A stretch of 39,563 nucleotides of DNA from a virus. Every line of letters begins with the position of its first letter. Within the stretch, counting starts at the first letter, position 1. The translations under genes were made by a program, and so were the position numbers. The notes under the pieces are model-generated. The model did no database searches and had not been told where the DNA came from. It saw only the letters and a program-made list of their open reading frames with translations. The stretch lies in the UHGV virus genome UHGV-0170560. One strand, given 5' to 3'. This document shows, one piece after another, positions 5,902 through 35,959 of the stretch.

Positions 5902-6059
5902 GTTAAATCTCCAGATAGTCGCAGCACCCGTTGCGCCGCATATCTGGTTATTCTATTACCTGAAAAACCACATATGGATAGATAACCCATAAATACGAAA
6001 AGATATTACCTTTCAGGTGATTTGCAAAACGTGCTGGATAGCAAACAAATTATTTGATA

Positions 6060-6075
6060 CTGTATATTTATACAG
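6060..6075 (+). promoter_or_regulatory. LexA (SOS) box
   Basis: CTGTATATTTATACAG = CTGT-N8-ACAG with AT-rich spacer, flanked TA..TT, about 20 nt upstream of the 6097 start codon. Confidence 0.65.
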
Positions 6076-6096
6076 TTATTGCATGGAGAAGATAAG

Positions 6097-6354
6097 ATGC
6101 AGCAGTATCACTATCCACTGGAAGACGGATTTACCGAAAGGATTCACACGCCGGGAGGCGTCAGATCACTGGTGGAGGGATCGCACTTGATGAAATTACT
6201 CCGGGATCTCGATAAGGATGGATTTAATGTCGATGGCCCACTTGCCGAACTGACTGCACTGATTAACTACGTCACCAGCTCACAGATGTCTATGCGGGAT
6301 CTGCAAACACATCTCGACTATTGTGCCGAACAATTACGAAAACAAACCAGATAA
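6097..6354 (+). CDS. Small protein paralogous to the C-terminal domain of the downstream antirepressor
   Basis: 85 aa from ATG with GGAGAA RBS (track ORF begins at an upstream TTG); aligns with the last ~65 aa of the 6670..7380 protein (shared pattern IH.P.GV..L.E.S.LM.LL..L..DG..V.G..AELT....Y.......RD.QTH..Y). Confidence 0.6.
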   Translation: MQQYHYPLEDGFTERIHTPGGVRSLVEGSHLMKLLRDLDKDGFNVDGPLAELTALINYVTSSQMSMRDLQTHLDYCAEQLRKQTR

Positions 6355-6490
6355 GGTTTGCAATTACCAAGTGGAGTGCTTATATTTACCTTTGAGGTGA
6401 ATTTACATCGCACTCCTCTTATGCCATAGTAATCGGGCACTGGCAAAATCCAGTGCCGGGATTGGCGTCCCGGGTTACTAAGTGGCGCAT

Positions 6491-6514
6491 ACCACGCCAG
6501 ACGTGGTTTTTTTA
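6491..6514 (+). terminator. Rho-independent terminator-like hairpin
   Basis: Stem ACCACG/CGTGGT with loop CCAGA followed by TTTTTTT. Confidence 0.6.
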
Positions 6515-6669
6515 TGCGTTAAGCACAGCTATATCCGAATTATGGTGGGCTGGGCAGGGGTCCGAAAGGACGCCGGTACCACTTAGGCCGGTACGCCAAC
6601 CTTGTCCAGTTCACCACCAGTAATTGGCGTTGCGGTGGTGATTAAAATCACTAAGTGGAGATAACCACC

Positions 6670-7380
6670 ATGGCTAATGCTCAAACTGCCATCTTCAAAT
6701 TTGAATCTGTTAACCCTATCCGTTCCATCATTATCGATGGCCAACCATGGTTTGTAGCCCAAGACGTTTGTAGTGCGCTGCGTATCCAAAACGTCACCCA
6801 AGCACTTGAAAAACTGGATGATGATGAAAGGTCTATGTTCAACATAGGGCATGAACATCGTGCAATTTTTGACAGCCGAGTAAAAGAGATCAACATCATC
6901 TCCGAGTCAGGCCTCTACACACTGATCCTCCGCTGCCGCGACGCAGTGACACCAGGCACTATCCCCTACCGCTTTCGTAAATGGGTTACAGGTGAGGTTC
7001 TTCCTCAGATCCGCCGCACCGGAAGTTACATTAAAAACTCGCTCCCGCAGGAAGAACGCATAAAGATGGTTGCCGACCAGGTAGCCAACGCCACGGCGTC
7101 AGCAGTAATGCAGGCGATGAAGATAGAGAACAAAACCTACAGCGCCCCGCTGCAGCCCGGCTACCGCAGCCTGATTCACTCGCCGTCTGGTGTTCTCGGC
7201 CTGACGGAGAACTCACTGCTGATGAATCTGCTGAACCAGTTACAGGACGACGGGCACGACGTATCGGGCGCGGCGGCGGAGCTGACCACCATGTTCTGCT
7301 ACATCGTCGGTGTGAGTAAATGCCTGCGTGATATCCAGACCCACGCGGAATACATCAACGACAAGGCAGGGTTCTTCTGA
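6670..7380 (+). CDS. Antirepressor (Bro-N domain protein)
   Basis: 236 aa from ATG preceded by GGAG; N-terminal Bro-N hallmarks (WFVAQDVCSAL, ISESGLYTLIL, FRKWVTGEVLPQIRRTGSY). Confidence 0.8.
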   Translation: MANAQTAIFKFESVNPIRSIIIDGQPWFVAQDVCSALRIQNVTQALEKLDDDERSMFNIGHEHRAIFDSRVKEINIISESGLYTLILRCRDAVTPGTIPYRFRKWVTGEVLPQIRRTGSYIKNSLPQEERIKMVADQVANATASAVMQAMKIENKTYSAPLQPGYRSLIHSPSGVLGLTENSLLMNLLNQLQDDGHDVSGAAAELTTMFCYIVGVSKCLRDIQTHAEYINDKAGFF

Positions 7381-7504
7381 CGGGCGGCGGCACAGGGATG
7401 TGCCTTTAAATAATTCTGTACGATTGCAGACAGGGGGGTGAATAGAGTACTATTACCTTACGGGTGATCCATAGCGATTAGGCACCGATACAGGAGGAGC
7501 CCAC

Positions 7505-19792: not shown

Positions 19793-20121
19793 TACTCACC
19801 CCCATTGCCGTACAGGGTTTCAGCCGCTGATTTTTCTACATCCCCGGAAACAGGAGCGATCGCCATATCAGTGATCTGCAGATCGGCGCTGCGATTAACA
19901 CCATCGTCAGTTTCTCTGGCAGACAGGCCTCGAATAACAGCTTTTGCAGTTATCATCACTTCTGTTCCGACGCCCTGAGGTTGCGCCTTCAGCTTATTCA
20001 ATGTGTCGTTATTAAGAGTGATGCACAGCCCCCACGGGTATTCATCGCGAGTTCTGGTTTCTCCGCTCTCATCCTGGTAGCTGTCAGTGCCGGTTTTGAG
20101 GTTTACGAGTTCCATATACAC
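19792..20121 (-). CDS. Hypothetical virion-associated protein
   Basis: 109-aa ORF in the head-tail gene block. Confidence 0.5.
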   Translation of the reverse strand: MYMELVNLKTGTDSYQDESGETRTRDEYPWGLCITLNNDTLNKLKAQPQGVGTEVMITAKAVIRGLSARETDDGVNRSADLQITDMAIAPVSGDVEKSAAETLYGNGGE

Positions 20122-24893: not shown

Positions 24894-25320
24894 ATCAATG
24901 ACTCCGTACGCAATTAAATTATTACCAATTTAACCACATATGATTTATTTATCGTAGATAGTTGACATTTTATGCACGAATTATTACCTTTTGGGTAACC
25001 AAAGAGTTCATTCCGGTTACTAACCTGACTGGCTTGTCGTTAAATTGAACAGGTGGAGTGAGCTTTTATTTTGAGCAGTACGGCGTATGGCACATGCGCC
25101 GATAGCGGTCTGGATACGTTTAAGGGGCACCCTCCCTTGCTCGGGCAAACGAACCAGGTAGCCGGAATGTGCAAGTCGAGCGGTTTTATTCCGCGCACGG
25201 GGATTCACCATCCCGGCGATTCGGTGTGACGCCTCGGAAGAGACGAGGGTACAACGATGAGAGCATTTATGGAGCCGCGACAAAGTGTGGCGCCTTAACA
25301 GGCTAAGTGCTCTCAGCGTT

Positions 25321-25397
25321 GTGGCATTAGCTCAGTTGGACAGAGCAACCGCCTTCTAAGCGGTTGGCCGCAGGTTCGAATCCTGCATGCCACGCCA
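25321..25397 (+). tRNA. tRNA-Arg (anticodon UCU), CCA encoded
   Basis: Hand-folded cloverleaf: acceptor GTGGCAT/ATGCCAC, D-stem GCTC/GAGC, anticodon stem ACCGC/GCGGT with loop CTTCTAA, T-stem GCAGG/CCTGC with TTCGAAT loop; argU-like. Confidence 0.9.
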
Positions 25398-25584: not shown

Positions 25585-25637
25585 GCCTGTAGGTTACCTT
25601 ACAGGTATCATCGAAATTCACATAGCAAGGAGGAATT

Positions 25638-25820
25638 ATGACTGACCAGGTTTATGATTTAACTAAAATTACCGAGATTGAACAGACTAACGATGCGCAA
25701 AGAGCAAACTTCCTTTTAGGAAGCGGATGGGTATTACTCAAGGTAACTGAAACGCAATTCCATGATAACTATGGTGCTTTAAAAGCAGACGTGGTTTTCA
25801 CATTAGGCAATCCACAGTAA
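25638..25820 (+). CDS. Hypothetical small protein (moron)
   Basis: 60 aa, AGGAGG RBS, followed by a hairpin at 25829-25851. Confidence 0.5.
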   Translation: MTDQVYDLTKITEIEQTNDAQRANFLLGSGWVLLKVTETQFHDNYGALKADVVFTLGNPQ

Positions 25821-27643: not shown

Positions 27644-28236
27644 TGATTACCATCCTGACGTTCTTTGAGTCGCTTCCTGGCTGCTGCTATGCGATCAGCA
27701 ATTGTCACATTCACATTAACATCCAGACGTTCTTTGAACGCGTTGACATCAACATGCTTACCAATCAGTTCTAGGTTCTTCACCTTGTCAGGCCATTTAA
27801 TTTTTTTGAGGATTGTCTCTATCGAGTCCTCGTTCATGTTCATGATGGTCGATGACAGATCAAAGCCGCTAAGCGTAGTGCGCCAGATTTTCGGCCACTC
27901 ACGGATTGGTTTAAGGCTCCCATCGTCGTTGAGGATATCGATCACGTCCATCTGGTCGATCTCCACCAGGCGCATGAGAACGTAATCAGCACTGACGCGC
28001 ATTCGTTTGTTGCGCTCCTCCATCAACTCGGCAATCCGTTTTTGAATGCGTTCATCGCGCATCATAACACTGGCTTTAACTGCCGCTGTATTTGGGGAGA
28101 ATCCAGCGTTAATCGCAGCCTGAGTCTGGTTTTCAGGCGTTTTGATGTATGACTGGCAATAAGCCTCCTGCATTGCTGTGAGCGGCTTAAATTGCGTTGA
28201 TTTGCGTTTATAGGTTTTAGGTTCAGCAGGCATCAT
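27640..28236 (-). CDS. Terminase small subunit
   Basis: 198 aa from ATG (the track ORF starts at an upstream TTG); basic helix-rich protein immediately upstream of TerL. Confidence 0.6.
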   Translation of the reverse strand: MMPAEPKTYKRKSTQFKPLTAMQEAYCQSYIKTPENQTQAAINAGFSPNTAAVKASVMMRDERIQKRIAELMEERNKRMRVSADYVLMRLVEIDQMDVIDILNDDGSLKPIREWPKIWRTTLSGFDLSSTIMNMNEDSIETILKKIKWPDKVKNLELIGKHVDVNAFKERLDVNVNVTIADRIAAARKRLKERQDGNQ

Positions 28237-28354
28237 AACCACCCTGGTAATTGTTACCGTTGTGGTAATAGTACCATGCAAAATAAAGCCACCATAGTTG
28301 GCGGCAGTATTCAAAACCCATCAAATTCATCATGCATAATCTACTCGTGACATG

Positions 28355-28696
28355 TCACACTATTAATTTAGTTTCATGCCAGCCTTTAGTCACCCAGCAT
28401 TGCGAGTCACCATTACACGGGCATGAATTAACGGGAACTTTCTCGCCGCACTTACCGCAACGTTTTCTGCTAATCGATTTTATACGCCCGCGCACGCGTG
28501 CATCATCCTGGCGGATCAGTAACGCTATATACTCACCAAATTCGTAAGGAGAACGCCCGGGGCGACGCGTGGCACAGTTACGTTCCAGCATTTCAATTTC
28601 CTGAGTATCAAGCACAATCTCCAGCTTACGTACACCGGATTCAGCTTGTCTGGCTCTCTGAGCGGCTTTGCGCTCTGCTGCTGATTTAGCCATCAA
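28355..28696 (-). CDS. Hypothetical Cys-rich protein (possible zinc-binding)
   Basis: 113 aa with CGKCGE...CPCNG cluster; no HNH His signature recognised. Confidence 0.45.
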   Translation of the reverse strand: MMAKSAAERKAAQRARQAESGVRKLEIVLDTQEIEMLERNCATRRPGRSPYEFGEYIALLIRQDDARVRGRIKSISRKRCGKCGEKVPVNSCPCNGDSQCWVTKGWHETKLIV

Positions 28697-32755: not shown

Positions 32756-32872
32756 GATTTACCCCTTAGGTAATTAAAAACCACATAAGACATGAAATCA
32801 ATAGAAGTTAGAAGATTTTATTACCTTCTAGGTAATCATATAGACGTAAAAAAATGCGCTATCGCGCTGGTA

Positions 32873-33673
32873 TTACTTGATAAATCCTGCCGCCTTTCCC
32901 CGCCTGTATTCCTCCATCAGCCACTGCGCCGGTGTTATTCCCCCAAGGGTGGCGGCGTTAGGCATGCACCCGAAACTTCGCCCTGGTGGATGGTAAACGT
33001 CTCTCCCTGTGTCCGGAGGCGTACTCATGGGTTCTGGCTTTGCCTGTATGCTGATCACCGGATCGGGTATCTGCTGTCCGGAAGCCACCTTTTTCGCCCA
33101 ATCATCGAGCAGCCTGCGCGCGTGTTTCTCAACCTCAATCTCGCTAAGCTGGCGCTGATACATTGCACGGCGGGTATCACATACGACCCAGTACATAACC
33201 GGATGTCGCCACGGGAATCTTTCCGGACCACCAGGATATAAACTTTTTTCCTTGCTGTACCGGTGAAACTCCGCCATCACATCGTCAATGGTGATGCCAA
33301 GAACCATCTTGCTGTCTTTACACCACTTGATGAATTGCCCTGGCGACGGCCAGAACGGAGATTCACTGGCGCGGGCGTGGCGCATACCAGCAGAAACCTG
33401 TTCACGGGTTCGGATCCCACCTTCGGCAAACGCAGCAATCCACTGCTGTTTTGCAGCGACTTCCTGCTCTGGCGTCTTCAGGTTGGTTACCACTGCCGCC
33501 GGAAACAGTTGTTTCAGCTGTTTGAAAAGGGCATCAACAAGCCTCTCTGCTGACATGTTCACCACATTGTCATTGTTGACGTACTGATGCTCATAACCTG
33601 ACATGCGAGAAAGGGCTTCTCCGTCACGGTTTTGTATCGCGGTAAAAACGTTGTTCACAAGAAATCCTCCCAC
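32873..33673 (-). CDS. Replication protein P-like (helicase loader)
   Basis: 266 aa; QWIAAFAEGGIRTREQVSAGMRHARASESPFWPSPGQFIKWCKD closely parallels lambda P by recollection. Confidence 0.8.
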   Translation of the reverse strand: MGGFLVNNVFTAIQNRDGEALSRMSGYEHQYVNNDNVVNMSAERLVDALFKQLKQLFPAAVVTNLKTPEQEVAAKQQWIAAFAEGGIRTREQVSAGMRHARASESPFWPSPGQFIKWCKDSKMVLGITIDDVMAEFHRYSKEKSLYPGGPERFPWRHPVMYWVVCDTRRAMYQRQLSEIEVEKHARRLLDDWAKKVASGQQIPDPVISIQAKPEPMSTPPDTGRDVYHPPGRSFGCMPNAATLGGITPAQWLMEEYRRGKAAGFIK

Positions 33674-34470
33674 GCTTCAGGGCTGTTCCAGTGCGGAACG
33701 TTGTTATCAGGTAATGTTGATTGCTTCTGTCTGCTAATCTGCAGCCGCCTTGCCAGCTTCTGCTCCCACTGTGCCTGATGGTATGCCTTACCCTCAGCCA
33801 TCCAGTAAATTCTGAACTCTGCAAGTTCCTGTGCCGTTGGCAGACTGTCCAGGTAGATTCCCTGCAATGAGCTTTTTCGAAGAAAGTCATCTGATGGCTG
33901 CCATTGTTCATGCATGACAAATTTGCCTAATTGCCCTGGCCCACCAGGAGGAACAAAGTTATTCATCACGGCGTTGTTTGCGCCGGGGTCATGAGGCACA
34001 GAATCCCCGGTTTTTGTCCTGCTCTCCCTCTCTTGGTTAAATGACTGGTTATATGACTGGTTCTGGATCCCGTTTTTGGGATCATTCAACATCCCGTTTT
34101 TGGGATCATTCAACATCCCGTTTTTGGGTATATTCCCGTTTTCGGGAACATTACCGTTTTCGGGTTCATTACCCCCCTCCCGGTTGCCTTTAATGTTCCC
34201 GTTTTTGGTTATATTAAGAGAGAAAACCCGCACTCTTTTCGTCGCTCCCTTTCTCTCTCCGGTATCTAAAATAAGCCCCATTTTCATGAGCGATATAAGC
34301 CCGGCCTGCACGGTTTTTTTATTCAGGCAAGTGTCTTTAACGAGGCGTTCTATGCTGGGGTAGCAGAGGTTATATTCATCGGCTCTGTCAGCCATCGAGA
34401 GCAGTATGAGCTTTAATGACGAGCTACCTGGATCTGTCTCCCAGGCCCAATCTGTTGCATGTCTGCTCAT
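33655..34470 (-). CDS. Replication initiator O-like protein (iterons inside the gene)
   Basis: 271 aa; N-terminal HTH-like domain; internal NGN.P.NG repeat region encoded by the iteron array; overlaps the P-like gene. Confidence 0.75.
   Translation of the reverse strand: MSRHATDWAWETDPGSSSLKLILLSMADRADEYNLCYPSIERLVKDTCLNKKTVQAGLISLMKMGLILDTGERKGATKRVRVFSLNITKNGNIKGNREGGNEPENGNVPENGNIPKNGMLNDPKNGMLNDPKNGIQNQSYNQSFNQERESRTKTGDSVPHDPGANNAVMNNFVPPGGPGQLGKFVMHEQWQPSDDFLRKSSLQGIYLDSLPTAQELAEFRIYWMAEGKAYHQAQWEQKLARRLQISRQKQSTLPDNNVPHWNSPEAWEDFL
34066..34215. repeat. Iteron array, probable replication origin within the O-like gene
   Basis: Two perfect 24-bp copies ATCCCGTTTTTGGGATCATTCAAC (34066-34089, 34090-34113) plus 3-4 degenerate copies. 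Confidence 0.75.
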
Positions 34471-34686: not shown

Positions 34687-34790
34687 GGTAAGCCCTGTTA
34701 TTAGTATTGGGATTACGGTCATTTTGTGCTGACACAAAAAAAAGATCAACCAGATTTGGTTTTTTATTACCTTTGAGGTGCGAATAGATA

Positions 34791-34814
34791 TGAAAAGACC
34801 GCCGGGTGGCGGTC
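34791..34814 (-). terminator. Rho-independent terminator downstream of the Cro-like gene (tR1-like position)
   Basis: Stem GACCGCC/GGCGGTC with loop GGGT; T-run on the minus strand. Confidence 0.65.
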
Positions 34815-34836
34815 TACAGAGGGTTGTAGCTGGATA

Positions 34837-35067
34837 TCATGAGTAGAAGAAGTATGCCAGTTCTGCTTTTGAGCGCAGCCATTGTCTTGTTTTACAGGCT
34901 TTAAAAAGCCCATTCATCAATACTTTACCTGGCATTTTGCGCTTACCTGTTAAGTGAGTCTGGATATAGTGACTCGTCGTTCCGGCTTCCTGTGCGAAGG
35001 CTTCACGCTCATCCGGAGTAAGTGCAAGCCAGTGCTTTTTGAAATCGAAATGTCCGTTATCGCTCAT
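34837..35067 (-). CDS. Cro-like HTH regulator
   Basis: 76 aa with HTH-like segment EAFAQEAGTTSHYIQTHLTG; divergent from the repressor gene across an operator-rich intergenic region. Confidence 0.55.
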   Translation of the reverse strand: MSDNGHFDFKKHWLALTPDEREAFAQEAGTTSHYIQTHLTGKRKMPGKVLMNGLFKACKTRQWLRSKAELAYFFYS

Positions 35068-35103
35068 AGCTATTGCCTGATATTTATTTCAGATAATAAA
35101 TAT

Positions 35104-35166
35104 TCACCCATAAGGTAACAAAAATCAAGGATAGTTACCTATGGGGTGCATTTACCTGTTGGGTAA
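35104..35166. promoter_or_regulatory. Three adjacent operator-like palindromes in the repressor/cro intergenic region
   Basis: TCACC-CATAA-GGTAA (35104-35118), TTACC-TATGG-GGTGC (35135-35149), TTACC-TGTTG-GGTAA (35152-35166). Confidence 0.6.
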
Positions 35167-35221
35167 TATTGCTTTAAATTGAATCATCTACTGATTCATA
35201 TATGAGGCGATTTTCCAGAAA

Positions 35222-35806
35222 ATGAAAAGTATCCAGGACGTCCGCAGGCAAAATCTCAACGACTTGATCGACCGTGAATTCAATGGTGTTCAGACGCGGA
35301 TGGCAGAAAAACTTGGAACTCAGGCAAATCTGGTAAACCGCTGGGCTCTTGGCAAGAAGGTTATCGGCGACCAGGTTGCGCGAAAAATTGAAGCTGCCGC
35401 CAATAAACCACGTAACTGGCTTGATATCGATCGCTCGCTTTCTCAGGAAGGTTTTCAGCCTGTCGGCCCAAGCGACATTGGTCAGCTGGCGGCTCACAAC
35501 CTGGAACGCTGGATGAGCGAAAGCCGCGACCTTTCAACACAGGGAAAACTTCACCGCGCATCCGGCGTCGCCCAGGTGACAATCAGCCGCCTGTTAAACA
35601 ATGAGGTCAGCGTTTCCATTTCCACCCTGGAGAATGTTGCATCTGCATTCGGGCGTCACGGATATGAATTACTGATTCACCCGCACGACCCCGCGACTAT
35701 CAACTATGACCGCTCGCGCTACGCATTGTTACCTGAAACAGAGAAGGCAAAGATCGAAAGTTACATTGAATTTGTCATCAACCAGAACGAAAAAAGCAAA
35801 CAATAA
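35222..35806 (+). CDS. CI-like repressor without recognisable S24 autocleavage domain
   Basis: 194 aa with two HTH-like segments; no Ser/Lys peptidase-type C-terminal motifs recognised. Confidence 0.6.
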   Translation: MKSIQDVRRQNLNDLIDREFNGVQTRMAEKLGTQANLVNRWALGKKVIGDQVARKIEAAANKPRNWLDIDRSLSQEGFQPVGPSDIGQLAAHNLERWMSESRDLSTQGKLHRASGVAQVTISRLLNNEVSVSISTLENVASAFGRHGYELLIHPHDPATINYDRSRYALLPETEKAKIESYIEFVINQNEKSKQ

Positions 35807-35850: not shown

Positions 35851-35959
35851 ATTGCCCATGAAATTACCTTACGGGTAATTTTTTTAACTCATATCTATTG
35901 ACATCAAACCAAATACGAATAATCATTACCTCAACAGTAACAAGCCGAGGTAACAAGTT

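Follow-up and report, generated by a model that had tools for sequence, protein, structure and literature searches.

What are the three palindromes that lie between two divergent regulator genes of this phage, and which of the two regulators would read them? The gap that contains them spans 154 bp, between an open reading frame at 34837-35067 (minus strand) and another at 35222-35806 (plus strand). The original prediction for this locus was a tripartite operator, resembling an OR1-OR3 arrangement, between a CI-like repressor gene and a Cro-like gene. We examined the gap within the whole stretch of DNA available (39,563 bp; hereafter the window) and located three copies of a 15-bp palindrome with the consensus TTACC-N5-GGTAA, at 35104, 35135, and 35152, as had been claimed:

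35104-35118, unstranded: site a, TCACCCATAAGGTAA; one mismatch; a hybrid of one consensus half and one GGTGA-type half
35135-35149, unstranded: site b, TTACCTATGGGGTGC; two mismatches; degenerate right half
35152-35166, unstranded: site c, TTACCTGTTGGGTAA; perfect palindrome
34837-35067, minus strand: 76-aa Cro-like protein with an HTH, whose gene opens the replication-side operon; phrog_35
35222-35806, plus strand: rep, 194-aa repressor; match to PDB 5D50_A; Pfam HTH families

The description of one perfect copy and two copies with a degenerate half proved correct. Measured start to start, sites b and c are 17 bp apart, as predicted, while the a-b distance is 31 bp rather than about 30 bp. 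The two half-sites of a copy are centred 10 bp apart, i.e., one helical turn, as expected for an HTH dimer.

The surrounding 1.3 kb matches Escherichia phage phiV10 and related phages at 97-98% identity, and the window is, by sequence, a Uetakevirus genome (phiV10/epsilon15-like podoviruses). At 39,563 bp, next to 39,565 bp for phage ZX5 and 39,104 bp for phiV10, it is probably a whole phage genome. The same immunity region is carried by 561 of 5426 complete E. coli genomes (~10%). Gene order is lambdoid, with the Cro-like gene, rep, and then a PL operon, and is identical in phage SPC32H. Downstream of the Cro-like gene are a terminator, a 66-aa gene, a DnaT-like initiator gene with iterons, and a lambda-P-like gene; 3' of rep, a terminator is followed by a TTGACA-17-AATCAT promoter for recombination genes. 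Within the DnaT-like initiator gene, 34069-34215 holds some six iterons of the form CCGTTTT[TC]GGG with a variable tail; two of them are perfect 24-bp repeats, and together they presumably mark the replication origin.

To what extent could such a grouping arise by chance? The window holds six perfect copies against 0.005 expected and seven one-mismatch copies against 0.57 expected. Among spacers of 1-10 bp, the excess is confined to the 5-bp centre, and spacers of 1-4 and 6-10 bp gave no perfect copy in the window. None of 300 windows simulated with a Markov model had three sites (up to two mismatches) starting within 49 bp. We therefore give next to no weight to the idea that an AT-rich palindrome clustered here by accident, or that the cluster is a side effect of promoter-like sequence composition: two of the three sites are indeed imperfect, and with two mismatches allowed, pentamers resembling half-sites show some enrichment whatever the spacing, but the six perfect copies occur solely with the 5-bp centre, no simulated window matched the cluster, and the positions are kept across at least eight host genera (see below). 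The imperfect halves are themselves patterned. TTACC-N5-GGTG occurs six times in the window, GGTC not at all, and GGTT once; because of this bias we regard the "degenerate" half as a specific variant, and the hybrid sites are a distinct subclass of six copies.

We next consider the product of rep. In a phmmer search against the PDB, it aligned over residues 1-190 with 5D50_A, the Rep repressor of SPC32H (E = 3.5e-42), and its matches were limited to the two SPC32H Rep entries (5D50 and 5D4Z); by tblastn, identity to SPC32H Rep is 42.7%. The N-terminus is an HTH of Cro/YdaS type, the middle contains a second HTH-like domain, and the C-terminus corresponds to a tetramerisation and Ant-binding region. 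This agrees with the outline given in PMC9986798, where the N-terminal HTH binds DNA, the middle domain dimerises, and the C-terminal domain tetramerises and binds Ant. A Pfam search of Rep returned HTH families only and no peptidase S24 (RecA-dependent autocleavage) domain. The N-terminal helix motif N-L-[VI]-[NS]-R-W has Asn, Arg, and Trp invariant among the Reps compared. Hence, the "CI-like" label does not hold: with two HTH domains, no Pfam S24 match, and an antirepressor partner, the protein is of the SPC32H type by sequence, although the layout around it is lambdoid.

Published work on close relatives bears on how such a repressor behaves. Rep is 99.5% identical to the ORF21 repressor of phage vB_EcoP_ZX5, overexpression of which abolished free phage and lowered holin and endolysin mRNA by more than 99.9% (PMC9782041). 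In the same phage, overexpression of Ant lowered rep mRNA by 75% (PMC9782041). SPC32H Rep is summarised as a tetramer on palindromic DNA whose DNA-binding pairs are drawn from different dimers, and which tetrameric Ant disassembles (PMC9638917). The two middle-domain pairs of the tetramer are outlined as facing opposite directions, ~100 A apart (PMC9986798).

To better understand which features of the gap are retained, we compared the locus with 11 further lineages from at least eight host genera, whose Reps are 43-78% identical. Seven are bacterial loci (Rep 46-74%: Superficieibacter, Pseudescherichia, Pseudocitrobacter, Buttiauxella, a Pseudomonas lundensis assembly, Samsonia, and Pantoea), and four are phages (Tyrion, 78%; BUCT711, 45%; SPC32H and epsilon15, 43%). 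The scan of bacterial genomes yielded the seven loci, a scan of viral contigs gave near-identical loci only, and the phage collection completed the diversity. All three sites are kept in 10 of the 11 further lineages, at about -118, -87, and -70 from the rep start codon. Across lineages, site c lies at -66 to -76 from the rep ATG, site b is 17 bp upstream of it in every lineage, and site a is a further 30-31 bp upstream; the hybrid or imperfect site a is found at -113 to -122 in the 10 lineages that keep it. The exception is Samsonia, where b and c are kept and a recognisable site a was lost through a 1-bp deletion.

The strong and weak character of each site is retained as well. Site c is perfect in all 12 lineages, and its preceding T is invariant, giving TTTACC. 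Site a, by contrast, is imperfect wherever it is present (11 lineages); most often it is a hybrid of the TTACC/GGTG type, and the weakened half switches side between clades. The right half of site b reads GGT[GT]C in eight lineages and is perfect in SPC32H, epsilon15, BUCT711, and Samsonia. Because the perfect/degenerate pattern is conserved across lineages, it supports functionally graded sites, and the graded affinity proposed originally is compatible with this sequence pattern. Nearly all invariant columns of the intergenic alignment belong to half-sites; the others form a TTGAT that separates a from b and, downstream of c, a block resembling a -10. The 5-bp centres show free variation among lineages. 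The same bias exists at close range: among 80 near-identical relatives (14 haplotypes), none of 30 half-site columns varies, versus 13 of 124 others; of those 13, five belong to the centres (N5) of sites a and b. All 12 lineages examined have an identical operator half-site, and a single operator specificity appears to be common to at least eight host genera.

We then asked how the sites sit relative to predicted promoters:

35123-35128, minus strand: -35 TTGATT of a predicted lytic promoter, with -10 GAATAT at 35100-35105; would drive the Cro-like gene
35116-35121 and 35093-35098, minus strand: alternative lytic pair from the promoter scan, TTGTTA and TATTAT; 17-nt spacer, 7 bp downstream
35151-35179, plus strand: predicted rep promoter, -35 TTTACC at 35151-35156, 17-bp spacer, -10 TTAAAT at 35174-35179

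The predicted divergent hexamers are conserved and overlap sites a and c. On the minus strand, the ATCAA block between sites a and b (TTGAT on the minus strand) is retained, and TTGATT with an A2/T6 hexamer 16-17 nt after it is the best candidate for the lytic promoter, although the promoter scan favours the alternative pair; in other clades the putative -10 hexamer reads AATAAT, AATTAT, or AACAAT. Site a fills the spacer and abuts or touches the -10 of this predicted promoter, and it overlaps the predicted lytic core with either hexamer pair. On the plus strand, a -10-like hexamer (TTAAAT, TCTAAT, TTTAAT, or GATAAT) follows site c by 6-7 nt in all lineages. The predicted rep promoter, whose -35 and spacer are overlain by site c, scores 8/12, under the threshold of the scan, and is probably weak. 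Site b lies between the two predicted -35 elements, centred at about -44 from the predicted rep transcription start. With consensus match as a proxy for affinity, the best site is on the rep promoter and the imperfect site a is on the lytic promoter.

Three other candidates in the gap were considered. A minus-strand promoter over site c (TTTAAA-17-GTAAAT) was set aside, since the conserved block after site c fits a plus-strand -10 better (4-5 of 6 positions) than a minus-strand -35 (~3 of 6). An IHF site at the conserved AATCAA block did not fit WATCAANNNNTTR by eye, and the block was read as the lytic -35 TTGATT. Finally, a seven-codon mini-ORF at 35202-35225 (ATG AGG CGA TTT TCC AGA AAA TGA) ends in a stop codon that shares bases with the rep start codon (ATGA); it is probably not functional, as only Superficieibacter among the other lineages keeps it.

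The second regulator is a plausible reader of the same DNA. The divergent neighbour had been called Cro-like, and the label fits: the gene encodes a 76-aa HTH protein that matches phrog_35 "transcriptional repressor" (E = 5.6e-13), is divergent from rep in every lineage compared, and aligns weakly with the N-terminal HTH of Rep (27% identity). Its putative recognition helix, EAGTT[SA]HYI, is near-invariant across lineages. The alignment of the rep/cro gap revealed no separate conserved motif for this protein to bind, and it most likely shares some of sites a-c, judging from these comparisons. A lambda-type Cro has its operators in common with the repressor, and none separate.

A rival reading, which would count against Rep as the principal reader, is that some sites could be bound mainly by the Cro-like protein. 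In its full form, sites a-c, or the hybrid GGTG subset a, b, and d (site d is described below), would be primarily targets of the Cro-like protein, Rep would mainly read the perfect palindromes elsewhere, and the cluster would serve to shut off rep and temper early transcription. We consider this unlikely. The ubiquity and near-invariant helix of the protein, its membership of the same HTH class as the Rep N-terminal domain, the lack of any other conserved motif in the intergenic region, and the preference for GGTG (six copies) over GGTC (none) and GGTT (one), which marks the hybrid as a specific variant, all accord with it, as does the fall in rep mRNA under Ant overexpression if Cro acts at site c. 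However, hybrid copies are also present around the ant genes, a long way from any expected Cro target, the epsilon15 equivalent of one of them (at 6006) is a perfect palindrome, and site b is perfect in the SPC32H/epsilon15 clade. Because a lambda-type Cro shares the operators of its repressor, the Cro-like protein more probably acts alongside Rep at these sites than in its place.

The motif is not confined to the gap. Copies of TTACC-N5-GGTAA occur at about eight promoter-proximal clusters, often paired 17-18 or 62 bp apart, so that the region predicted as the operator is one of ~8 operator clusters genome-wide, not one of two. The palindrome is spread before nearly every transcription unit. 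On the replication, recombination, and late sides of the genome we found the following:

34767-34781, unstranded: site d, TTACCTTTGAGGTGC; hybrid, downstream of the terminator of the Cro-like gene
34796-34815, minus strand: terminator-like hairpin directly 3' of the Cro-like gene; phiV10 annotates a terminator
35864-35940, plus strand: PL-like cassette; 35864-35878 perfect, 35926-35940 with one mismatch, 62 bp apart
32759-32773 and 32821-32835, minus strand: pair upstream of a DUF1064 gene; both perfect, 62 bp apart
28236-28268, unstranded: tandem pair starting at 28236 and 28254, one-mismatch plus perfect, 18 bp apart
24984-24998, unstranded: perfect site at the -10 position of a TTGACA promoter (24962-24967) aimed at tRNA-Arg
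25594-25608, unstranded: one-mismatch site ~30 bp upstream of an ORF at 25638-25820

The two 62-bp pairs have a cassette in common: site, 19 nt, -35, 17 nt, -10, with the last T of the -10 serving as the first T of the second site in both. The PL-like pair flanks TTGACA-17-AATCAT (35898-35926), the promoter of the recombination operon. Elsewhere, the PL pair is 62 bp apart in Tyrion, L083-L086, and SPC32H, 63 bp in BUCT711, and 73-74 bp in two others. The pair at 32759 and 32821 flanks a minus-strand TTGATT-17-TTTAAT and has epsilon15 equivalents at 35907 and 35969. The tandem pair at 28236-28268 abuts the RBS and start of the small terminase gene (epsilon15 equivalents at 12 and 30). Some 80 bp upstream of this terminase-side Rep-type pair, at 28346-28357, is a perfect 12-bp palindrome, GTGACATGTCAC, which may be the site of a late-gene regulator. 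The perfect site at 24984 has an equivalent at 2932 in epsilon15, annotated there as repressor-binding. The TTGACA promoter at 24962 leads into ~330 nt of G+C-rich sequence and then tRNA-Arg(TCT) at 25321-25397; an Rfam search upstream of this tRNA-Arg gave no match beyond the tRNA.

Site d is likewise retained: 10 of the 11 other lineages have an imperfect site between -441 and -489 relative to the rep ATG, and the Pseudomonas lundensis locus has no site at this position. A loop between sites a and d (337 bp) found no support, with lineage spacings of 324-341 bp and no constant helical phase. The replication genes beyond the 34796-34815 terminator would need read-through, antitermination, or a second promoter, and the conserved weak site d (34767) comes after that terminator.

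Several copies overlap an RBS, and the N5 centre at 28236 and at 32759 contains a Shine-Dalgarno sequence, which would suit palindromes that act as RNA hairpins, either as RNase III sites or as RBS-masking elements; the epsilon15 record has RNase III sites annotated elsewhere. We nevertheless regard this as very improbable. The predicted hairpins have little stability (0 to -6.4 kcal/mol), both predicted transcription starts are at or downstream of sites a-c, and sites flank promoters at a fixed 62-bp spacing. Moreover, across the 12 lineages the stems stay constant and acquire no compensatory changes, whereas loop sequence varies freely, and it is this combination that argues for base-specific contact by a protein.

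The remaining copies accompany a module of two antirepressor genes:

6006-6020, unstranded: hybrid site TTACC-N5-GGTGA; LexA box and small ant follow ~40 bp downstream
6058-6077: LexA box, TACTGTATATTTATACAGTT; perfect, 20 bp before the ant ATG, assigned by eye against the LexA consensus
6097-6354: small ant, 85 aa; match to SPC32H Ant (5D50_E, E = 1.4e-46) over 83 aligned residues, with few substitutions
6386-6400, unstranded: hybrid site adjoining a promoter-like TTTACA, followed by the isrK-like and C4 RNAs and large ant
6437-6513: isrK-like sRNA, preceding large ant
6538-6621: C4 antisense RNA, preceding large ant
6670-7380: large ant, Bro-N-type, 236 aa; its C-terminal 80 residues match phrog_450, as does small Ant
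7453-7467, unstranded: hybrid site downstream of the large ant gene

In SPC32H, ant is reportedly under LexA control. The tandem ant genes suggest two differently controlled inputs onto one repressor. The epsilon15 equivalent of the 6006 site, at 19896, is the perfect palindrome mentioned above and is annotated as repressor-binding. Rep is only ~43% identical to the Reps of SPC32H and epsilon15, whereas the small Ant is far closer to SPC32H Ant; given an Ant this similar and a Rep at ~43%, the partners of the switch have diverged very unevenly.

Taken together, these observations make it likely, in our view, that an SPC32H-type Rep/Ant lysogeny switch has its central operator cluster in these three palindromes. 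The tripartite operator of the original prediction gains partial, comparative support from the conserved sites, the "repressor" annotation of the motif in epsilon15, and the repressor and Cro-like neighbours. We suggest that Rep would bind the sites through its N-terminal HTH, with the invariant Asn, Arg, and Trp matching the invariant half-site, and that a two-headed tetramer would engage two palindromes at once; the two heads would be the reason that sites are usually paired. Occupancy of site a would block the Cro-side promoter and so prevent lytic transcription, with site b as its cooperative partner 31 bp away (~3 turns, ~105 A). By this inferred geometry, one tetramer on a and b would lie along one face of straight DNA, and the 62-bp pairs (~6 turns) would need a small loop around the promoter. 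Site c, on the -35 and spacer of the rep promoter, would permit rep autoregulation and is also the likely place for the Cro-like protein to shut off rep after induction. Across the genome, Rep would silence at least seven other promoter-proximal clusters. Induction would proceed by antirepressors that disassemble the Rep tetramer, with no repressor cleavage; one Ant would be LexA-controlled and the second is preceded by antisense-RNA genes.

Some observations sit less easily with this scheme. Ranked by consensus match, the rep promoter has the strongest site and the lytic promoter the weakest, an order that a simple lambda-like model does not readily accommodate. The promoter positions are predicted, and the low score of the rep promoter and the choice between two hexamer pairs for the lytic one also weigh against the scheme. 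The 75% fall of rep mRNA on Ant overexpression in ZX5 speaks against autoregulation that is purely negative and is compatible with either activation from site b or, at site c, shut-off by the Cro-like protein. In addition, the epsilon15 RefSeq record leaves the three sites of the rep-gp39 gap unmarked, which counts against the operator reading. A more far-reaching proposal is that the logic of the switch is unlike that of lambda, with a perfect site on the rep promoter, a weakened hybrid on the lytic promoter, a Rep tetramer clamping a and b, 62-bp pairs trapping promoters in loops, and one operator specificity for all Uetakevirus-type Reps. We hold this whole combination to be tentative and rather doubtful; if true, immunity would be pan-genus at the DNA level, and specificity would reside in the Ant-Rep interaction.

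How does the cluster compare with known systems? The nearest is SPC32H, which has the same three sites at -116, -86, and -69 from the rep start and a 62-bp PL pair, and which has in common with this phage a full-length Rep, a small Ant, and a LexA box ahead of ant. The two differ in that b and c are both perfect in SPC32H, whereas b has a degenerate half here; sites a and b are 30 bp apart in SPC32H and 31 bp apart in this phage; and the degenerate half of site a is on opposite sides. Only this phage has a second, Bro-N-type Ant behind isrK-like and C4 RNAs. In the epsilon15 record (RefSeq NC_004775.2), seven ATTACC-N5-GGTAAT sites are annotated "protein_bind: repressor", and both epsilon15 and this phage have the motif ahead of terS, at the gp3-side promoter, on the ant side, at PL, and at the nin-like promoter. 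Our scan placed three homologous sites in the epsilon15 rep-gp39 gap, at 33341, 33358, and 33388, the ones that the record does not mark.

The likeness to lambda OR is one of layout. Three tandem imperfect palindromes lie between a divergent repressor gene and cro, the outer sites are predicted to overlie divergent core promoters, and a second cluster is at a PL-like promoter. In three respects the OR1-OR3 analogy has to be amended. First, the spacing is 31/17 bp here versus 24/23 bp in lambda OR. Second, lambda CI follows the order OR1>OR2>OR3, whereas the order of consensus match is reversed here, with the best site on the repressor promoter. Third, unlike in lambda, at least eight clusters are distributed over the genome of this phage. 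The repressors differ as well: lambda CI is an autocleaving protein with an S24 domain, whereas Rep has no S24 match, and induction by antirepressor is proposed. Phage P1 offers another parallel, with one repressor and many operators dispersed before separate transcription units, and its immI region (c4-icd-ant) likewise has a C4-type antisense RNA ahead of an antirepressor gene. P1 operators are asymmetric 17-mers, and P1 C1 is unrelated to Rep; in contrast, the sites here are symmetric and often paired.

The analysis reveals no new kind of element: the repressor family, the antirepressor, and the motif were already known, and SPC32H and epsilon15 have the tripartite layout too. What stands out from the sequence comparisons is the conserved strong/weak pattern, a predicted hierarchy reversed relative to lambda, and what appears to be a single specificity across at least eight genera. 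Operators of the phiV10/ZX5 group were not defined in the one functional study found for it, that of ZX5 (PMC9782041). The present work supplies a testable operator map for phiV10/ZX5 prophages of E. coli, comprising the three central sites and about ten more, and the map ties this group to the structurally solved Rep/Ant system of SPC32H, with an operator layout and a strong/weak pattern conserved across genera. It would be useful for phiV10-derived reporter phages and for cross-immunity among Uetakeviruses.
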